DNA of 64,000 nt from a virus (IMGVR_UViG_3300000944_000005:46039-110038); one strand, 5' to 3'. Shown: positions 8,982 through 46,207, counted from the stretch's first letter. Notes: generated by a model from the sequence alone, not told the origin. Translations and numbers: made by a program.

Positions 8982-9812
8982 TCACTCCCTTAGTGCATCC
9001 GCGTCACGATTAATTTCCAGCGCTTCGTGCATTGAAATAATATGCGTAGGGGCTGCTTGGTTAACGTCGCTCCAAACTAATAAACGTAACTCTCCTGCAC
9101 GAAACTCCAAAGCTGCCAAAGTACCATTAGGTCGAAAAGAGTTACTATACCCATCAGCTAATAACATAACAGCTAACGAAGTAACCCTAAGCGTGACTAA
9201 CTGCGTTGGTCGTTGTCGTGATCCTGTGGATGCTTCAAAAGCATCTTGATCCTGTAGTGATTGCCTAATCGTAAGGTTGTTATCACTCGTCGCGTTCACT
9301 CGTTGTGGGAGATTGGTTATTGCGACATCGTTATCTACCCAATACACATGGTTACCTGTGAGTTTACAGTACAAATCCACCGCAGCTTCTTTACTAATTA
9401 AGTCTGCGATATGTTGCGCTACTCCTTCAGGTGTGCGGCCGTACAAACCCCACAGCCTCACATCCACACGTCGAATATCGAATGATGTGAACGCACGAGT
9501 TTCGTGGTTGACGTTTGTGGTTGGTGACTCGCCACCTGCGTCAATAATACTAATTTCAGCAAGTGTACGTAGTGACGACTCACTCAACTGACTATTTGCG
9601 TTAATGATACTTAGAGAATACGACTCACCAATTTCGTGTAGTTGTGTAGTGCTCCCACCGAGTTGCTCATTCAAAACAGCGGCGCACTGATTCAGGTACT
9701 GGTAGAGATCAGTTACGGGGCTATCACCAAAAATACGATCACGCCAGGCGTCATACGCACCGCTTGTGGTGATATTGGTGATCACTTCTAAATAGATGTT
9801 GTTGATACTCAT
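8982..9812 (-). CDS. hypothetical protein
   Basis: Long ORF; ATG at 9812 overlaps the upstream TGA (ATGA). Confidence 0.65.
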   Translation of the reverse strand: MSINNIYLEVITNITTSGAYDAWRDRIFGDSPVTDLYQYLNQCAAVLNEQLGGSTTQLHEIGESYSLSIINANSQLSESSLRTLAEISIIDAGGESPTTNVNHETRAFTSFDIRRVDVRLWGLYGRTPEGVAQHIADLISKEAAVDLYCKLTGNHVYWVDNDVAITNLPQRVNATSDNNLTIRQSLQDQDAFEASTGSRQRPTQLVTLRVTSLAVMLLADGYSNSFRPNGTLAALEFRAGELRLLVWSDVNQAAPTHIISMHEALEINRDADALRE

Positions 9813-10924
9813 GATTGCAACTGCACCAATTCTGTTGAGACGTCTTTCCACGCAAAGTTACGACCGAGTCCTGGTACTGCCGGACTACAGCTCGTCTTAT
9901 ACTTGTAAGGACGTTTCTGGTCATTGTACTCAGTACGGAACTGAAGCCTAGCCTCGGCCGCATTATCTGCCTCACAGACAAACTTAATCGGATCCGGTGC
10001 TTTATCGCCTTCAAACTCCTTGAGTCGAGCCGTGACAGTCCAGAAGCGGTCACCTCGGAAATGGTGCCCGTCACGGTAAAGCCGCTCCATCTCAATCGCC
10101 AGTTTGTAGTAATCAGGATCGACCACAGCCAGTCGTTTAATCTCTTGCCGCTTCATTGCTGGGCAGAAGAAACATGCTGACTTAGGTGGAAGTGGTAGAC
10201 CATGCCGTTTGATAATATCGCGACAAGCTTCACGGTCCATACCGTAATCACGCAACGGGTACGCTACGTCGTAGCGGTCTTTGAATTTTGGAAAACCGTC
10301 TTCGTTACAAATGTTAAAGTTACCTACAGCGTAAGTATCCCCACCACCTTTAACCCGATGATCTTCCCCAGCATCGAAACCGATGCACTTTAGGACGCGT
10401 TGTCCGCGAAGCCACGTTTGCCGGAGTGGTTCCGCGCGGAGTCATATCGGCTCCTGTGCTTCGATTTTCCATTTGACCGAGCAACTCTTACGCCCAAAGG
10501 CGATCCCAGGTAATGTGTAGTTTGCGAGCATGTTACCAACAATACCGTCGGACATGCGTACAATGTCCTCTTCTGTGATTGTCCGTAACTGTAAACGGTC
10601 AACAGCTTCGCGGACAGAATCTGCGTACTTTTTCGACGTCTTTGGAAGAGGTTGATACCGACATTCTTGGGGTGTCGGGTAACCGTGCTTATCTAAGTAC
10701 TCAGCGAACACGTCGCCGAACTCGTAGGTACCGATCTCTTCACCCATTGAAGGATCAGGTCGGCGTTTCTCACCGCCATGGTCTGCGCTGGTAATCAAAT
10801 CAATTGGGATACCGCGTTCGATATCGGCCAGTATCATTGCAGTAGAATTCCACCCTTTACCGTGACATACTGCTCTTGCTGGTGTCTCTCTTGGTTTATT
10901 CTGAAACCATGTAGACTCAATCAT
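9809..10924 (-). CDS. PAPS-reductase-like (adenine nucleotide alpha hydrolase family) protein interrupted by one in-frame TGA at 10442-10444
   Basis: ORFs 10442..11011 and 9809..10255 share a frame and are separated only by one TGA. Joined protein (371 aa) has HGKGWNSTAM, ADHGGE, SCSVKWKI, IGFDAGE, YPLRDYGMDREAC and PPKSACFFCP. Confidence 0.75.
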
Positions 10925-11555
10925 TAAATTTCTTTCGAAAATAAGCCAAACGTTTTTCTGCGTAGCTGTGAGATATACCCATAGCGTCTGCCAACGATCG
11001 GGCAGTGACACGTATTTGTTGTTTACTTAACCTTGCGACTGCGTCAGTCAATCGTTTGTCTGCATCAACTTTTTTACGTAACCGTTGGTTCGGTGGTGGT
11101 GTTTTAAACGACAAGTCTGGGTGATCGTGTGGACAGAAACCATAAAACCCAATTGCCTGGTTACAGTTATGGCATAGTACCCTAAAACCGTCAGGGTAAT
11201 CGTGCTTATTTAACCACCGATAAAGATGACCTTTGATCTCTTTACGATGAGTGTTACCGTTACCCTCAATGTGGTCGATTGAAAGAAATTCATAGGTGTC
11301 TTCACCACAACATTCACATACTGGTTTTACAGTACCAGAATAATGTTGTAACACTCGATAACGTAAGCGTTGACGGCTACGTGTATTTGCTTTCGTGGAA
11401 TCGGTCTTCCCGCCACGTTTACGCGAGGCTTGTTCGCATTCCCGGCATTGACTTCGACGATAACCAGGCCCTGATTTGTTAAACGAAATTATAGATCGAC
11501 GTTTTTTGCATTCAGGGCAGACTTTAAAACGACGCCCTGCTTCTTTAAATGGCAT
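10917..11555 (-). CDS. free-standing HNH endonuclease (probable homing endonuclease) with Zn ribbons and C-terminal HTH
   Basis: CECCG, LSIDHIEGNG, RVLCHNCN motifs; next to the RNR gene. Confidence 0.8.
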   Translation of the reverse strand: MPFKEAGRRFKVCPECKKRRSIISFNKSGPGYRRSQCRECEQASRKRGGKTDSTKANTRSRQRLRYRVLQHYSGTVKPVCECCGEDTYEFLSIDHIEGNGNTHRKEIKGHLYRWLNKHDYPDGFRVLCHNCNQAIGFYGFCPHDHPDLSFKTPPPNQRLRKKVDADKRLTDAVARLSKQQIRVTARSLADAMGISHSYAEKRLAYFRKKFND

Positions 11556-11695: not shown

Positions 11696-13672
11696 TTACT
11701 TCACAGGACATTGACCTGAAGAGCAGTCTTCTAACGCGAAATCATGGATACCGTGTAGTTGGCTCCAGTCAACTGGGCCAAGTTTTGAAACATACTCCCG
11801 GTATGGTTCTTCTGTCGTCACTTCTTGCGGAAGGTAAGCGTAACCTAAATCCTTCGCTGTCTTGGTAGGATCGTTACGCATCAACCATGACACTGCCACG
11901 AAGTCGTTCCAGTTACGGTACAACCACTCGACAATCTCGTCCAATTCAGACCTGTCCCACGACACAGTGATCGAAGTATTGTGATCGGTCCACAGAGTGT
12001 TCCAACGACGATACGTTTCGAGTTGCTTAATCGCAGAATCTTGATTCACTTCCTTACCGTCGACAACGTCAAAGTCACACCCAGAAAACTCTACTGGGAA
12101 ACAGATCAGTTTGTTGTTGGCGTCAGTCGGGTTATCCATGACGGAGTAACCAGCCTTAGCCAACATGTCTACGATAGGATCATCCTTGGAGAAGTTGATG
12201 TTGTTGAAGATATACCGACCAAGTGGTTTGTGGATACCTTCTGTCACATCCAGGATCTTCGACCCCGTTCCCTCAGGTTTGATTGTAGTCACCAGTTTAG
12301 GTTTTGGTAGCCCTAACTCGTCAGCCATGGAGTAAGCGCCCCACATGGCTGCGTTACGCATCTGTTTGATCTGGTAGTCCGTAAACCAGTTCGCTTGCGC
12401 AAGCCCAGTCAACGACATACCACAGAGACGTAAGGCCGCATTCGTCTGATCCCACTCCGGTCGTAATGTACCGTCGACGAGATCCACACAGGTTTGGCGG
12501 TAATTCGCTCGACCCATGATGTGCAACGCCCGCAGTAAACCTGCGAAGTCGTTCTTGAACTTTGGTGCGGCCGTGGTTACTAAGTTACAGAAACCACCTG
12601 CCGGAAGCAGGATCTCTGCACAAGGATTGAGTCCATCAAACCAAGGAGCCCGATTACGTGCTGCCTCTCCGTTGATGAACCCGGGTTCCGAACCACCACA
12701 GTCCCAAATCAACTGCATGATACTACGAATTTCTCGTTTCGTAGGTTTCTGCCAGAACACAACCGAGTTGTTAGATTGTTGACGGTGAGCATTGTCGTGC
12801 TCCCACCATTTGTTCTTAGCCATTGCGAACTGTTTCCATCGCGGATGTTTATAATCCATTACGGCGATCTGCGCTGATCGTCGCGATGATAAGACAGTCC
12901 CTAACCAATTCACTACATCCAACAGATCAATCTCGTCCAGTAGTTCGCCGGCCTTTGCGTTCATGATCTTGAAGATCGCCTTGTAAGCATCGACTAACGG
13001 TTCGGATCCATTACAGATCCAGCCGTAACCTTTAAGTCGCTTACCTGGCCCACGTACGTCGGTGAAATCAATCGTCAGTTTGTTAACCTTCGACTTGGGT
13101 GGGTTGAGTAGTTTACCTGCACTCTTCGCCCAAGCTTCAGCTGAATCACCGATCTTGATGTACCACTCGTAGTTGTTTTCCGCTGTCGGCTTCACCTCTT
13201 TGTTAGCCGGATCTCCTTTATGATCCGGTGGTTGATTAGATGGATGAATCTCCAAGTCTGGAATCTTCTGAAGGAACCCGTGAAGGTTACCTGTCAACGG
13301 TCGAAAACCCACACCGCATCCGTTGAGTAATAACCAGAAAATATCGACGATCTGGTAAACGGAATTCGCGTGGGTGTAAGAGCAATTGAACTGAGAACAG
13401 GCGCGTGACCGAGAGTACTCGGTACCACCTAACCAAAGTGTACGACCAGCTACTAATGCTTTGCGGTCCAACACGAGGTCGTGTAGTTCCTGCAGTTCAT
13501 CAGTGTTTGGTGTTCCTCCGGCTCCCTCCCATAAATCTTTGTGATGATCAATCGTTGATCGTTGTACAGTTTCCTGCCAGGTTTCAAGAACCTTTCCGTC
13601 CTCGTCTTTAGGACGATTGTAAGTGCGTCGCGTAACGGCTTCAGCGCGAGCACTTGGCGCAATTGTAGACAT
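11696..13672 (-). CDS. nrdJ: class II (AdoCbl-dependent) ribonucleotide reductase
   Basis: RTYNRP, GRTLWLGG, FNCS, NGCGVGF, NPCAEI, FCNL, TTIKPEGTGS and C-terminal CxxxxCP; no beta subunit nearby. Confidence 0.92.
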   Translation of the reverse strand: MSTIAPSARAEAVTRRTYNRPKDEDGKVLETWQETVQRSTIDHHKDLWEGAGGTPNTDELQELHDLVLDRKALVAGRTLWLGGTEYSRSRACSQFNCSYTHANSVYQIVDIFWLLLNGCGVGFRPLTGNLHGFLQKIPDLEIHPSNQPPDHKGDPANKEVKPTAENNYEWYIKIGDSAEAWAKSAGKLLNPPKSKVNKLTIDFTDVRGPGKRLKGYGWICNGSEPLVDAYKAIFKIMNAKAGELLDEIDLLDVVNWLGTVLSSRRSAQIAVMDYKHPRWKQFAMAKNKWWEHDNAHRQQSNNSVVFWQKPTKREIRSIMQLIWDCGGSEPGFINGEAARNRAPWFDGLNPCAEILLPAGGFCNLVTTAAPKFKNDFAGLLRALHIMGRANYRQTCVDLVDGTLRPEWDQTNAALRLCGMSLTGLAQANWFTDYQIKQMRNAAMWGAYSMADELGLPKPKLVTTIKPEGTGSKILDVTEGIHKPLGRYIFNNINFSKDDPIVDMLAKAGYSVMDNPTDANNKLICFPVEFSGCDFDVVDGKEVNQDSAIKQLETYRRWNTLWTDHNTSITVSWDRSELDEIVEWLYRNWNDFVAVSWLMRNDPTKTAKDLGYAYLPQEVTTEEPYREYVSKLGPVDWSQLHGIHDFALEDCSSGQCPVK

Positions 13673-13782: not shown

Positions 13783-13855
13783 TACGGGTGGAGGGACTCG
13801 AACCCCCAACTATTGGCTTTGAAAGCCACTACTCTACCAATTGAGTTACACCCGC
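13783..13855 (-). tRNA. tRNA with anticodon UCA (opal suppressor / tRNA-Trp(UCA)-like)
   Basis: Minus strand GCGGGTG TA ACTC AATTGGTA GAGT A GTGGC TTTCAAA GCCAA TAGTT GGGGG TTCGAGT CCCTC CACCCGT A folds as a standard cloverleaf. Anticodon loop is UU-UCA-AA, variable loop is short, CCA is not encoded. Confidence 0.92.
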
Positions 13856-13983
13856 GTATCAATCCTAATTTTTACAAGGAACAGAAAATGAAAGACACAT
13901 GATCTAATCAACACGAACCAGGTAAAGTTGTACTATCACTCAACCTTCCAGCCCTTGAAAGACTTTTAGGTGGCGATTCTGAA

Positions 13984-14490
13984 TTGGAGGTTGAGTTGCG
14001 ACAACAGGTCGCGAATTCTTTTGCTGGGAAGCATCTGAAATCTTTACTCAACACCAAGATGGTGAAAGACAGTCTCGCTGATGCACAGTCCGATGTCAAC
14101 AAGTTAGTAGAAGCTGGGCGTAAAGAAGCCCGAAAATATCTAGCTAAACAAGTTGGTGAAATCAAAAAACGGAACTGGCGCGAAGAGGTTGAACTTAATG
14201 ATAAGTTCAAAAACAAAATCTGTCAAAAAATGCGTAAAGCTGCTGAAGACGCGATCCCTCTTGATACGATCGTCGAGAAATTAAACGAACGTACTGAGTA
14301 CTTAAAAGATCACTTTGATCAACGGATAAAAAAAGCAGTACGCGCGTACATGGATGATGGTTTTAAGAAAGCAGTAGACGCTGAAGTTCAACGAATCATC
14401 AGTAACGCTTTCGACATCGGACGTGACCGTAACGATAAGTCACGCGTTGTTCTCGTTGACCCACCTACTCCTTCGACAGAGTCAGCGTAA
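13984..14490 (+). CDS. hypothetical helical/coiled-coil protein
   Basis: 168-aa Lys-rich ORF on the minority strand, followed by a hairpin; start uncertain. Confidence 0.6.
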   Translation: MEVELRQQVANSFAGKHLKSLLNTKMVKDSLADAQSDVNKLVEAGRKEARKYLAKQVGEIKKRNWREEVELNDKFKNKICQKMRKAAEDAIPLDTIVEKLNERTEYLKDHFDQRIKKAVRAYMDDGFKKAVDAEVQRIISNAFDIGRDRNDKSRVVLVDPPTPSTESA

Positions 14491-45015: not shown

Positions 45016-46207
45016 GAGTCAAGTTATAACCGATCACACGCAGGATCTTACAGGTAGTGAACAATATCGACTGACCCAGCTTTATCAACCACCGGGGTTC
45101 GTGAAGCAAGCCAGTCATGAACAGCTCTGCGGCGGACCTGAACAAATTCCGCAGCATCTCTACGCAGATCCTCGTAACCGTAACTTTCCTTGTCATACCA
45201 AGGCTGCTACGTGGATGTCCGCACTGTTCTTCGGGGATGTACGCAAAAGTCTTGACCCAGAAGTGGCCGAGACTGTTGCAACAAAACTTATCAAGACCGC
45301 AGGATACTGGAAGATCAGCCCCGAGGTAACAGAACTTTGGGAAAAGATGGCACAAGATGAAGCCCAAGGTCAACCGCGTCTGGCGGATTCGGACTTTGCA
45401 TTCGTGTGGCAGGCCGGTGACCAGAAAGAGCGACATTACCCATTACGTAATCCAACTGAGGTAAAAATGGCGTCTCACTGGTTCGGTGAGCACCATGATC
45501 AGTTCAATTTTGAAGACAAGCATACTGTGGCTCGTAAGATCCTAGTCAAAGCTAGTCAGATGGGCGCCGTTGTTGACAACCAGGAGCTCCTGGATCGTTG
45601 TGCTGGTTTTGGTTATTGCTCGTCAGAAGATGCAGCAAAGGCCTGGGACAAGCGAGCACACTTACTTCAATCTAGTCATCCCGAGTACTCTAATGAAGCG
45701 GTGAAAGTTGCAACTTCATTACGTAGTGCTACTTTTGAAGCACGTGATCAAGGTAGGCGGATCAAGATGGCTGGGTTGATGGGTCAATTCGATCAACAAA
45801 CTCATTTGAATCGGTTGTACGATGACGGCCTTGAACGACCAGAAGACGTACTATTTCAGATTACTGAGAAAGTAGCTTCTGAGTTCTTACAAAGTAACGT
45901 CACAACCACCACAGGCGCCATCTACGAAAAGATGGCCCTGGAGCGGTTGGACATTGAAACAGTTCGTTCGTGGCTTGGTGACGACCTTGCTGAAGCCTGT
46001 GGTGGAATCAGTATGGACGTGGAGAAGTTGGCAGAAATTCTACCAACCCTCCCTCGTCCCGACGCCGAGATGTTCGAACGGATGGCACAAGCAGCTGGTA
46101 TCTCAGTTTACGCTCGCGAGAAGTCTGCTGCCGATCGCGGGATGTCACTGGATGAGATGCGGGCAGCAGCTAAGCAGTACAAACCGACAGAACAACCGAC
46201 ACTTTAA
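45014..46207 (+). CDS. hypothetical protein (possibly virion or morphogenesis)
   Basis: 397-aa ORF with GGAGG SD; recurring KxA(S) peptides. Confidence 0.7.
   Translation: MSQVITDHTQDLTGSEQYRLTQLYQPPGFVKQASHEQLCGGPEQIPQHLYADPRNRNFPCHTKAATWMSALFFGDVRKSLDPEVAETVATKLIKTAGYWKISPEVTELWEKMAQDEAQGQPRLADSDFAFVWQAGDQKERHYPLRNPTEVKMASHWFGEHHDQFNFEDKHTVARKILVKASQMGAVVDNQELLDRCAGFGYCSSEDAAKAWDKRAHLLQSSHPEYSNEAVKVATSLRSATFEARDQGRRIKMAGLMGQFDQQTHLNRLYDDGLERPEDVLFQITEKVASEFLQSNVTTTTGAIYEKMALERLDIETVRSWLGDDLAEACGGISMDVEKLAEILPTLPRPDAEMFERMAQAAGISVYAREKSAADRGMSLDEMRAAAKQYKPTEQPTL

Follow-up and report, generated by a model that had tools for sequence, protein, structure and literature searches.

A single conserved in-frame UGA within a PP-loop enzyme gene of large phages points to programmed decoding of a stop codon

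How can a gene that is cut in two by a stop codon be maintained as one enzyme, and what part might a nearby transfer RNA (tRNA) that could read that stop play in its expression? The question is raised by a gene for an enzyme resembling phosphoadenosine phosphosulfate (PAPS) reductase on the viral contig IMGVR_UViG_3300000944_000005, of which positions 46039 to 110038 were analysed. This stretch of 64,000 nucleotides (nt), hereafter the window, is part of a 155,625-bp viral contig from IMG/VR; coordinates are counted from its first letter unless a relative's contig is named. An initial annotation of the window had proposed that the gene needs read-through of a single in-frame TGA, and that a tRNA with the anticodon UCA, 3.3 kb away, gates its expression. 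The observation itself is confirmed and its interpretation is partly supported. The gene is probably intact and functional and expressed by programmed decoding of the internal UGA, the UGA acting as a throttle and the tRNA(UCA) as a booster that was added later. The gene and its parts are as follows.

9809..10924, minus strand: putatively recoded gene for a PAPS-reductase-like PP-loop enzyme, 371 sense codons if the UGA is read, plus the terminal TGA.
10442..10444, minus strand: the in-frame UGA, codon 161, followed by CUC (from the sequence and relatives).
10445..10924, minus strand: codons 1-160, with the PP-loop motif (variant C-x-G-x-G-W-N-S-T) and the invariant Cys148, ending within helix 147-163 (from alignments and an AlphaFold2 (AF2) model).
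9812..10441, minus strand: codons 162-371, with the IGFD core strand, the invariant K-S-A-C-F-F-C-P and a C-terminal β domain (from alignments and the AF2 model).

Translation of the minus strand from 10924 to 9809 reproduced the joined product of 371 amino acids that had been predicted, open on both sides of one TGA, and the TGA at codon 161 is the only internal stop across the 371-codon frame. The start ATG (10924-10922) overlaps the stop of an upstream HNH-like gene, and the terminal stop, also a TGA (9811-9809), lies within an ATGA overlap with the next gene. After the internal TGA there is no ATG, GTG or TTG for 62 codons. In every database entry examined, gene callers have split the gene into two 'hypothetical proteins'. 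The family signal expected on both sides of the stop was recovered as a match to PHROG 424 ('phosphoadenosine phosphosulfate reductase') that runs from residue 22 to residue 302, across the stop (E = 2.9e-16); together with the fold matches described next, it upholds the identification of the product as a PAPS-reductase-like PP-loop enzyme.

Modelled by AF2 from an alignment of 72 sequences, the read-through product was predicted to form one compact domain, with a predicted local distance difference test score (pLDDT) of 91.8 and a predicted template modelling score (pTM) of 0.88. In the model, codon 161 falls within helix 147-163, ahead of the core strand 177-181; because it sits inside a core helix, the 160-residue fragment that precedes it would not be expected to form a domain. 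Foldseek matched the model to YcfA, CysH and APS reductase with probabilities of 0.99-1.0, and also to TtuA, with query-length-normalised TM-scores against PDB structures of only 0.28-0.30, and the top 30 AFDB clusters were dominated by PAPS reductase family proteins. At E ≤ 0.1 the enzyme had no match in Pfam (including PF01507) or NCBIfam, PF01507 being present in some homologues, and its sequence profile matched no solved structure among PDB chains.

The internal TGA is not peculiar to the window. The search for the enzyme returned 732 homologues, and DNA was read for 18 relatives (L002 from IMG/VR; L082-L084, L282, L283, L402 and L405 by exact-protein look-up; L166-L175 from metagenome contigs). 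At amino-acid identities of 48-85%, all 18 carry TGA at the identical codon, making 19 of 19 sequences of the clade with the window included, and each has exactly one internal stop and no frameshift. They come from independent samples and lie on contigs of 47-61% G+C that use the standard code. The presence of the TGA in 18 independent relatives rules out an assembly error.

Entries in the protein database also include about 14 proteins with only the C-terminal part and a further 21 fragments, of 97-185 amino acids, with only the N-terminal part, some on contigs of 159-227 kb (the count of 21 being 23 matches less the window's own fragment and one distant match of 38% identity). The N-terminal-only fragments suggest that the split is widespread. 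Other searches added little: the region had no megablast match among deposited phage genomes, relatives of the phage sought in IMG/VR through its class II ribonucleotide reductase were not found, and a scan of species genomes returned only distant homologues, at 30-37% identity. In two relatives, another PAPS-reductase-like gene, this one uninterrupted, lies 2-3 kb from the gene with the UGA (L282 7368-8228 and L402 6169-7209).

The residue that the stop replaces is arginine. In alignment A1, Arg stands at the TGA column in 16 of 16 uninterrupted homologues, within the motif A-Q-E-P-x-R; Trp, which had been proposed for this position, was not found there. Where the DNA of uninterrupted homologues was read, the Arg codon is CGA or CGG: the closest has CGA ATC CGA, where the TGA-bearing genes have TGA ATC CGN, and another has CGG. 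Distant homologues, at 30-37% identity, have C, V, L, A or T in this column, with Cys in many of them. In the maximum-likelihood tree the Arg-bearing genes are basal. TGA occupies the three deepest branches of a clade of 14 rows (support 96/87), inside which four rows have Arg. As read from this tree, Arg is ancestral, and TGA had one or two origins, followed by two or three returns to Arg. Since TGA is basal in the clade and the Arg rows are nested in it, the TGA appears to have persisted for long, with reversion only to Arg.

Between TGA-bearing genes the proportion of synonymous sites that differ (pS) is saturated, at 0.56-0.86 (0.63-0.80 in the N-terminal half), and the nonsynonymous proportion (pN) is 0.12-0.19 upstream of the stop and 0.20-0.26 downstream of it. 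For the comparisons that allowed it to be calculated, the ratio of nonsynonymous to synonymous rates (dN/dS) is 0.06-0.26. In an independent strain from a marine metagenome, 95-97% identical, 15 of the 16 differences listed 3' of the TGA are at third codon positions; the list is a partial set, and the TGA itself was not established for this one strain. By these sequence comparisons, both halves are under purifying selection. One in-frame TGA with a conserved half on either side bears out the proposal that a single UGA must be read through for the whole gene to be made. The decaying 3' half that had been envisaged for relatives with the same TGA and no tRNA was not what we found, because the 3' half is conserved.

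Within the contig, the putative recoding concerns this gene alone. A crude gene call with translation table 11 assigned 93% of the contig as coding, with TGA as the terminator of 65 of 193 genes (34%). A search for further TGA-split genes, which had been suggested, was run over the whole 155-kb contig, scoring the codon usage of same-frame pairs of open reading frames (ORFs) split by one stop; only the enzyme gene was coding on both sides without a nearby restart codon, and it is the sole convincing case. Because only this pair passes the contig-wide scan, the data indicate one recoded gene rather than a recoded genome. Whole-genome reassignment of UGA, as in phages using code 4 or 25, was considered and rejected, given the single affected gene, the common use of TGA as a terminator and the coding density under code 11. 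TGA is likewise an ordinary terminator in the seven relatives' contigs checked. Backup stops, sought behind TGA-terminated genes as a sign of suppressor adaptation, did not differ clearly from those behind TAA- or TAG-terminated genes.

The tRNA upstream of the gene is described by three features.

13783..13855, minus strand: tRNA with anticodon UCA, 73 nt, with a short variable loop, G1.U72, A73, G27.A43 and no encoded CCA (ARAGORN, Rfam).
13820..13822, minus strand: the anticodon UCA, position 34 being window base 13822 (from contig comparison).
13673..14473, minus strand: segment with the tRNA and an ORF of 102 amino acids (13908-14216, minus), about 680 nt having no counterpart in the relative L402.

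The initial annotation was right about this element: it is a genuine tRNA that could decode UGA, 3.3 kb away. It lies on the minus strand, upstream of the enzyme gene. Its Rfam tRNA score is 67.6 bits, against a gathering score of 29, and it is the single tRNA in both the window and the whole contig. The sole matching Escherichia coli tRNA is tRNA-Trp (76.5% identity), and the best matches among deposited phage tRNAs are to tRNA-Gly (80%). We compared contigs from four runs (X1, X2, X6 and X7) with the tRNA, over window positions 13790-13855. All abundant cellular look-alike contigs, 82-90% alike, have G at 13822 on the plus strand, giving the anticodon CCA, and the ends of several run into G73 and an encoded CCA. 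Because of this anticodon, G73 and the encoded CCA, the look-alikes are tRNA-Trp genes, and they may include the host gene and the source of the phage tRNA.

A phage strain from run X2, 95-97% identical to the window, keeps UCA despite about 10 changes in the tRNA body, with double changes at pairs 10-25, 28-42 and 31-39. Given its resemblance to tRNA-Trp and the retention of UCA alongside compensatory changes, the tRNA is Trp-derived and has been selected as a reader of UGA. The G27.A43 mismatch is of a kind reported to raise the efficiency of suppressor tRNAs (PMC13092985). A strong sigma70-like promoter match (TTGACA-17-TATCAT, 11 of 12 positions) lies at 14198-14226 (minus), about 340 nt upstream of the tRNA; such matches are no more numerous in the region than shuffled sequence would lead one to expect. 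The 155-kb contig has no phage gene for tryptophanyl- or tyrosyl-tRNA synthetase (TrpRS/TyrRS), arginyl-tRNA synthetase (ArgRS) or a release factor. When IMG/VR was scanned by pattern for genes related to the tRNA(UCA), the matches were mostly tRNA-Leu(CAA) or non-tRNA DNA; only three unrelated tRNA(UCA) genes emerged, and no locus that also had the enzyme gene.

Comparison with L402, from a contig of 161.7 kb, sets the order in which the two elements arrived. The two contigs are collinear over 16 kb (window 19750-4058 against L402 1846-17386, tblastx), and L402 has the same 'TGA C' with no tRNA within 10 kb on either side (ARAGORN). In the window 816 nt separate the shared flanking genes, against 139 nt in L402, and the tRNA looks like part of a small insertion. 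Because L402 has the TGA but not the tRNA segment, the TGA is the older of the two at this locus. The tRNA is at most a local booster, and not the origin of the recoding, because the TGA-bearing relatives show no tRNA(UCA).

The account that we favour, and consider probable, would run as follows. A conserved Arg codon, CGA, would have become UGA in the ancestor of the phage gene clade and then been kept. Most ribosomes would stop at the UGA and release an incomplete fragment of 160 residues, and a minority would insert an amino acid and complete the 371-residue enzyme, so that the UGA would serve as a built-in translational throttle on a PP-loop enzyme. In the window's lineage, the Trp-derived tRNA(UCA), acquired later 3.3 kb upstream, would compete with release factor 2 and raise the yield; the enzyme gene is probably its client in this phage, to some degree.

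Base composition next to the stop hints at a short selected nucleotide context around the UGA. The following codon is NTC in the window (10439-10441) and in all 18 relatives (ATC 14 times, CTC five times), and is kept even where it is a minority synonym (18-35%). From the genes' own codon usage, the naive chance of this is about 1e-5, for rows that are non-independent. The base at +8 is always G.

Several points weigh against programmed decoding with a tRNA booster. No stimulatory or conserved RNA structure was found: RNAalifold gave no consensus pair in the 60 nt after the UGA, single-sequence folds had z-scores from +0.8 to -2.7 (mean about -0.65), a hand-drawn helix 3' of the UGA was only 42% paired, no better than a slid control, and Rfam had no match other than the tRNA. 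Read-through may accordingly be very low. The gene appears in no run recorded as RNA and in no proteome. The DNA around the other TGA-bearing genes, more than 220 kb in all, showed no tRNA(UCA). The phage tRNA has A73 and G1.U72, where the tRNA-Trp of the community has G73, which leaves the charging synthetase ambiguous. No TGG version of the gene was seen, and a product with Trp161 would lack the Arg that all sense versions keep; because every sense version keeps it, the function of a Trp161 protein is not assured. Finally, 65 of 193 genes terminate in TGA, and an efficient suppressor would extend their products as well.

The strongest of the other readings is the one first put forward for the locus, a suppressor-gated switch in which the enzyme would be made only after the tRNA(UCA) is expressed and the tRNA would mainly serve this gene. 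We regard it as unlikely. Its appeal is plain: the sole tRNA of a 155-kb contig lies on the same strand 3.3 kb upstream of the only convincing gene with an in-frame stop, a second strain has retained UCA through its many body changes, and a promoter-like sequence stands before the tRNA. It is set against L402, where the same stop is kept with neither the tRNA nor its segment, and against the third of phage genes that end in TGA. No tRNA of any kind was found in the full 41 kb of G001, in the 24-30 kb walked by exact-protein look-ups on the contigs of three other relatives, or in several contigs of 5-20 kb, the genomes being incomplete and the search covering flanking DNA. With TGA in 18 relatives and no tRNA(UCA) in their flanks, the switch falls as a general mechanism; what is left of it is a possible lineage-specific boost.

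A second reading concerns the residue inserted. The UGA might be decoded as Arg, and so be synonymous with CGA at this site, which we hold to be a slim prospect. The route would be a near-cognate tRNA-Arg, with G36 paired to U at the first codon position; in this phage the decoder could instead be the tRNA(UCA) itself, in which the G73 of tRNA-Trp has become A73 and C35, a determinant for ArgRS, is retained. Arg decoding would explain why TGA alternates with Arg alone, even though a single change could just as well yield a codon for Trp, Cys, Gly, Leu or Ser. If true, standard-code bacteria would at this one site read UGA as a sense codon for Arg.

Less probable still is a split enzyme, in which translation would end at the UGA and re-initiate just downstream, the two halves forming an active heterodimer. 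A Shine-Dalgarno-like AGGAG (10455-10451, minus) does lie 9 nt before the codon that follows the TGA, a TTG occurs six codons downstream in 8 of 17 genes, and the two ORFs are annotated separately by gene callers. There is, however, no conserved start codon, the codon after the UGA being AUC or CUC. The distance from the stop to the first in-frame ATG, GTG or TTG varies with the phage from 3 to 63 codons, and four genes (the window, L168, L174 and L166) have none for 30-63 codons, past the conserved IGFD strand. The residues between the TGA and the possible starts are conserved as protein, and the break falls within a helix of a single domain. The CGA-bearing sister genes encode single chains, and the TGA/CGA state flips on the tree. 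The AGGAG is made up of Gln-Glu codons and may reflect the protein sequence alone, because it is also present in the CGA-bearing L251. Re-initiation as a general mechanism is thus unlikely.

Decoding as selenocysteine, by the host's SelB and a selenocysteine insertion sequence (SECIS), is very hard to sustain. A conserved in-frame UGA and the many distant homologues with Cys at the column are what such a reading would predict, and ARAGORN labels the tRNA 'SeC', from the anticodon only. But the close homologues have Arg and never Cys, and because the column is variable (C/V/L/A/T) in distant homologues it does not hold a catalytic Cys. No SECIS emerged from the consensus and single-sequence folds, the hand-drawn helix or Rfam, and a tRNA of 73 nt with a 7/5 acceptor/T arrangement and a short variable loop is not a selenocysteine tRNA. 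A plain nonsense pseudogene or a sequencing error, for which a single C-to-T change from CGA to TGA would suffice, is scarcely credible for a TGA common to 19 independent sequences without a second stop or frameshift, basal in a deep clade and followed by a half under strong purifying selection; the pseudogene was excluded on the saturated pS with low pN, the third-position bias and the persistence of the TGA on the tree.

Programmed stop-codon read-through is textbook knowledge for RNA phages and eukaryotic viruses. The coat gene of phage Qbeta contains a leaky in-frame UGA kept by selection, and minority read-through yields the longer, required A1 protein. Both cases involve a phage gene with a selected in-frame UGA in a standard-code host. 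In Qbeta the short and long products are both functional and the extension is an added domain, whereas here the UGA lies inside a single enzyme domain, and because it interrupts that domain only the long product can be the enzyme. Qbeta is, moreover, an RNA phage; the window and its relatives are large double-stranded DNA (dsDNA) phages in which the codon replaces a conserved Arg and alternates with CGA. In the literature searched we found no description of conserved single-site read-through in an enzyme gene of large standard-code dsDNA phages.

A further comparison is with the crAss-like, Lak, Agate and Jade phages, in which 26-71% of genes contain in-frame stops and the stop that has been recoded is under-used for termination (Borges et al., bioRxiv 10.1101/2021.08.26.457843). 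The same study proposed that in-frame stops act as a translational timer, and reported standard-code phages with a TGA suppressor tRNA. The window phage shares with them a phage-encoded tRNA with the anticodon for UGA and a standard-code host. It differs in having one affected gene, with TGA ending 34% of its genes, and in that its recoded codon is kept at a single site by phages in which no suppressor tRNA was seen. Bacterial selenoprotein genes resemble the locus in having a conserved in-frame UGA within an enzyme gene, and differ in the points already given: no SECIS was found here, homologues carry Arg instead of Cys, and the tRNA does not belong to the selenocysteine type.

The locus is well suited to experiment, with one codon conserved in at least 19 lineages, natural CGA controls in the same clade and one lineage with an added tRNA(UCA). 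It also bears on annotation, since gene callers break the gene into two hypothetical proteins. A tolerated in-frame UGA followed by a suppressor tRNA might, in addition, be a first step from a standard-code to a recoded phage.

With regard to the enzyme's chemistry, three cysteines (C148, C251 and C254) are invariant across 72 homologues, a pattern that we take to be typical of Fe-S-dependent PP-loop enzymes; by analogy, the enzyme is probably iron-sulfur dependent. It shares with the PAPS reductase-like PP-loop ATP pyrophosphatases (CysH, APS reductase, TtuA, DndC, the lambda NinC/IbrA type and YcfA) the common fold, a PP-loop-like N-terminal motif and invariant cysteines, and differs from them in adding a C-terminal β domain of about 90 residues. 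The canonical SGGxDS ATP-binding motif is absent. At the corresponding PP-loop (10846-10872, minus, codons 18-26) the window has C-H-G-K-G-W-N-S-T and relatives have C-W-G-A-G-W-D-S-T; the loop begins with Cys and, in the window's subclade, has Asn for the usual Asp. G-W-N-S occurs only in the window, L405 and L402, and G-W-D-S in the others; 'TGA C' occurs in these three and in L283, and all others have 'TGA A'. Among the structural matches, YcfA is a PP-loop enzyme of 6-thioguanine synthesis (PMC12494993). The product would likely modify a nucleotide or nucleic acid.

The gene's neighbours encode a class II ribonucleotide reductase, an HNH nuclease and a DNA methyltransferase, two of which were placed as follows.

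11696-13672, minus strand: class II (B12-type) ribonucleotide reductase of 658 amino acids, between the tRNA and the enzyme gene (phrog_367, E = 6e-153).
10917-11555: HNH/endonuclease VII-like gene, not common to L402.

In one Arg-bearing relative, Mom-like and methylase genes are among the neighbours. A relative's contig (L279 17751-20273) encodes a 1896-residue fused RNA polymerase β/β'-like protein with an intein, which suggests that these are large phages with an RNA polymerase of their own.

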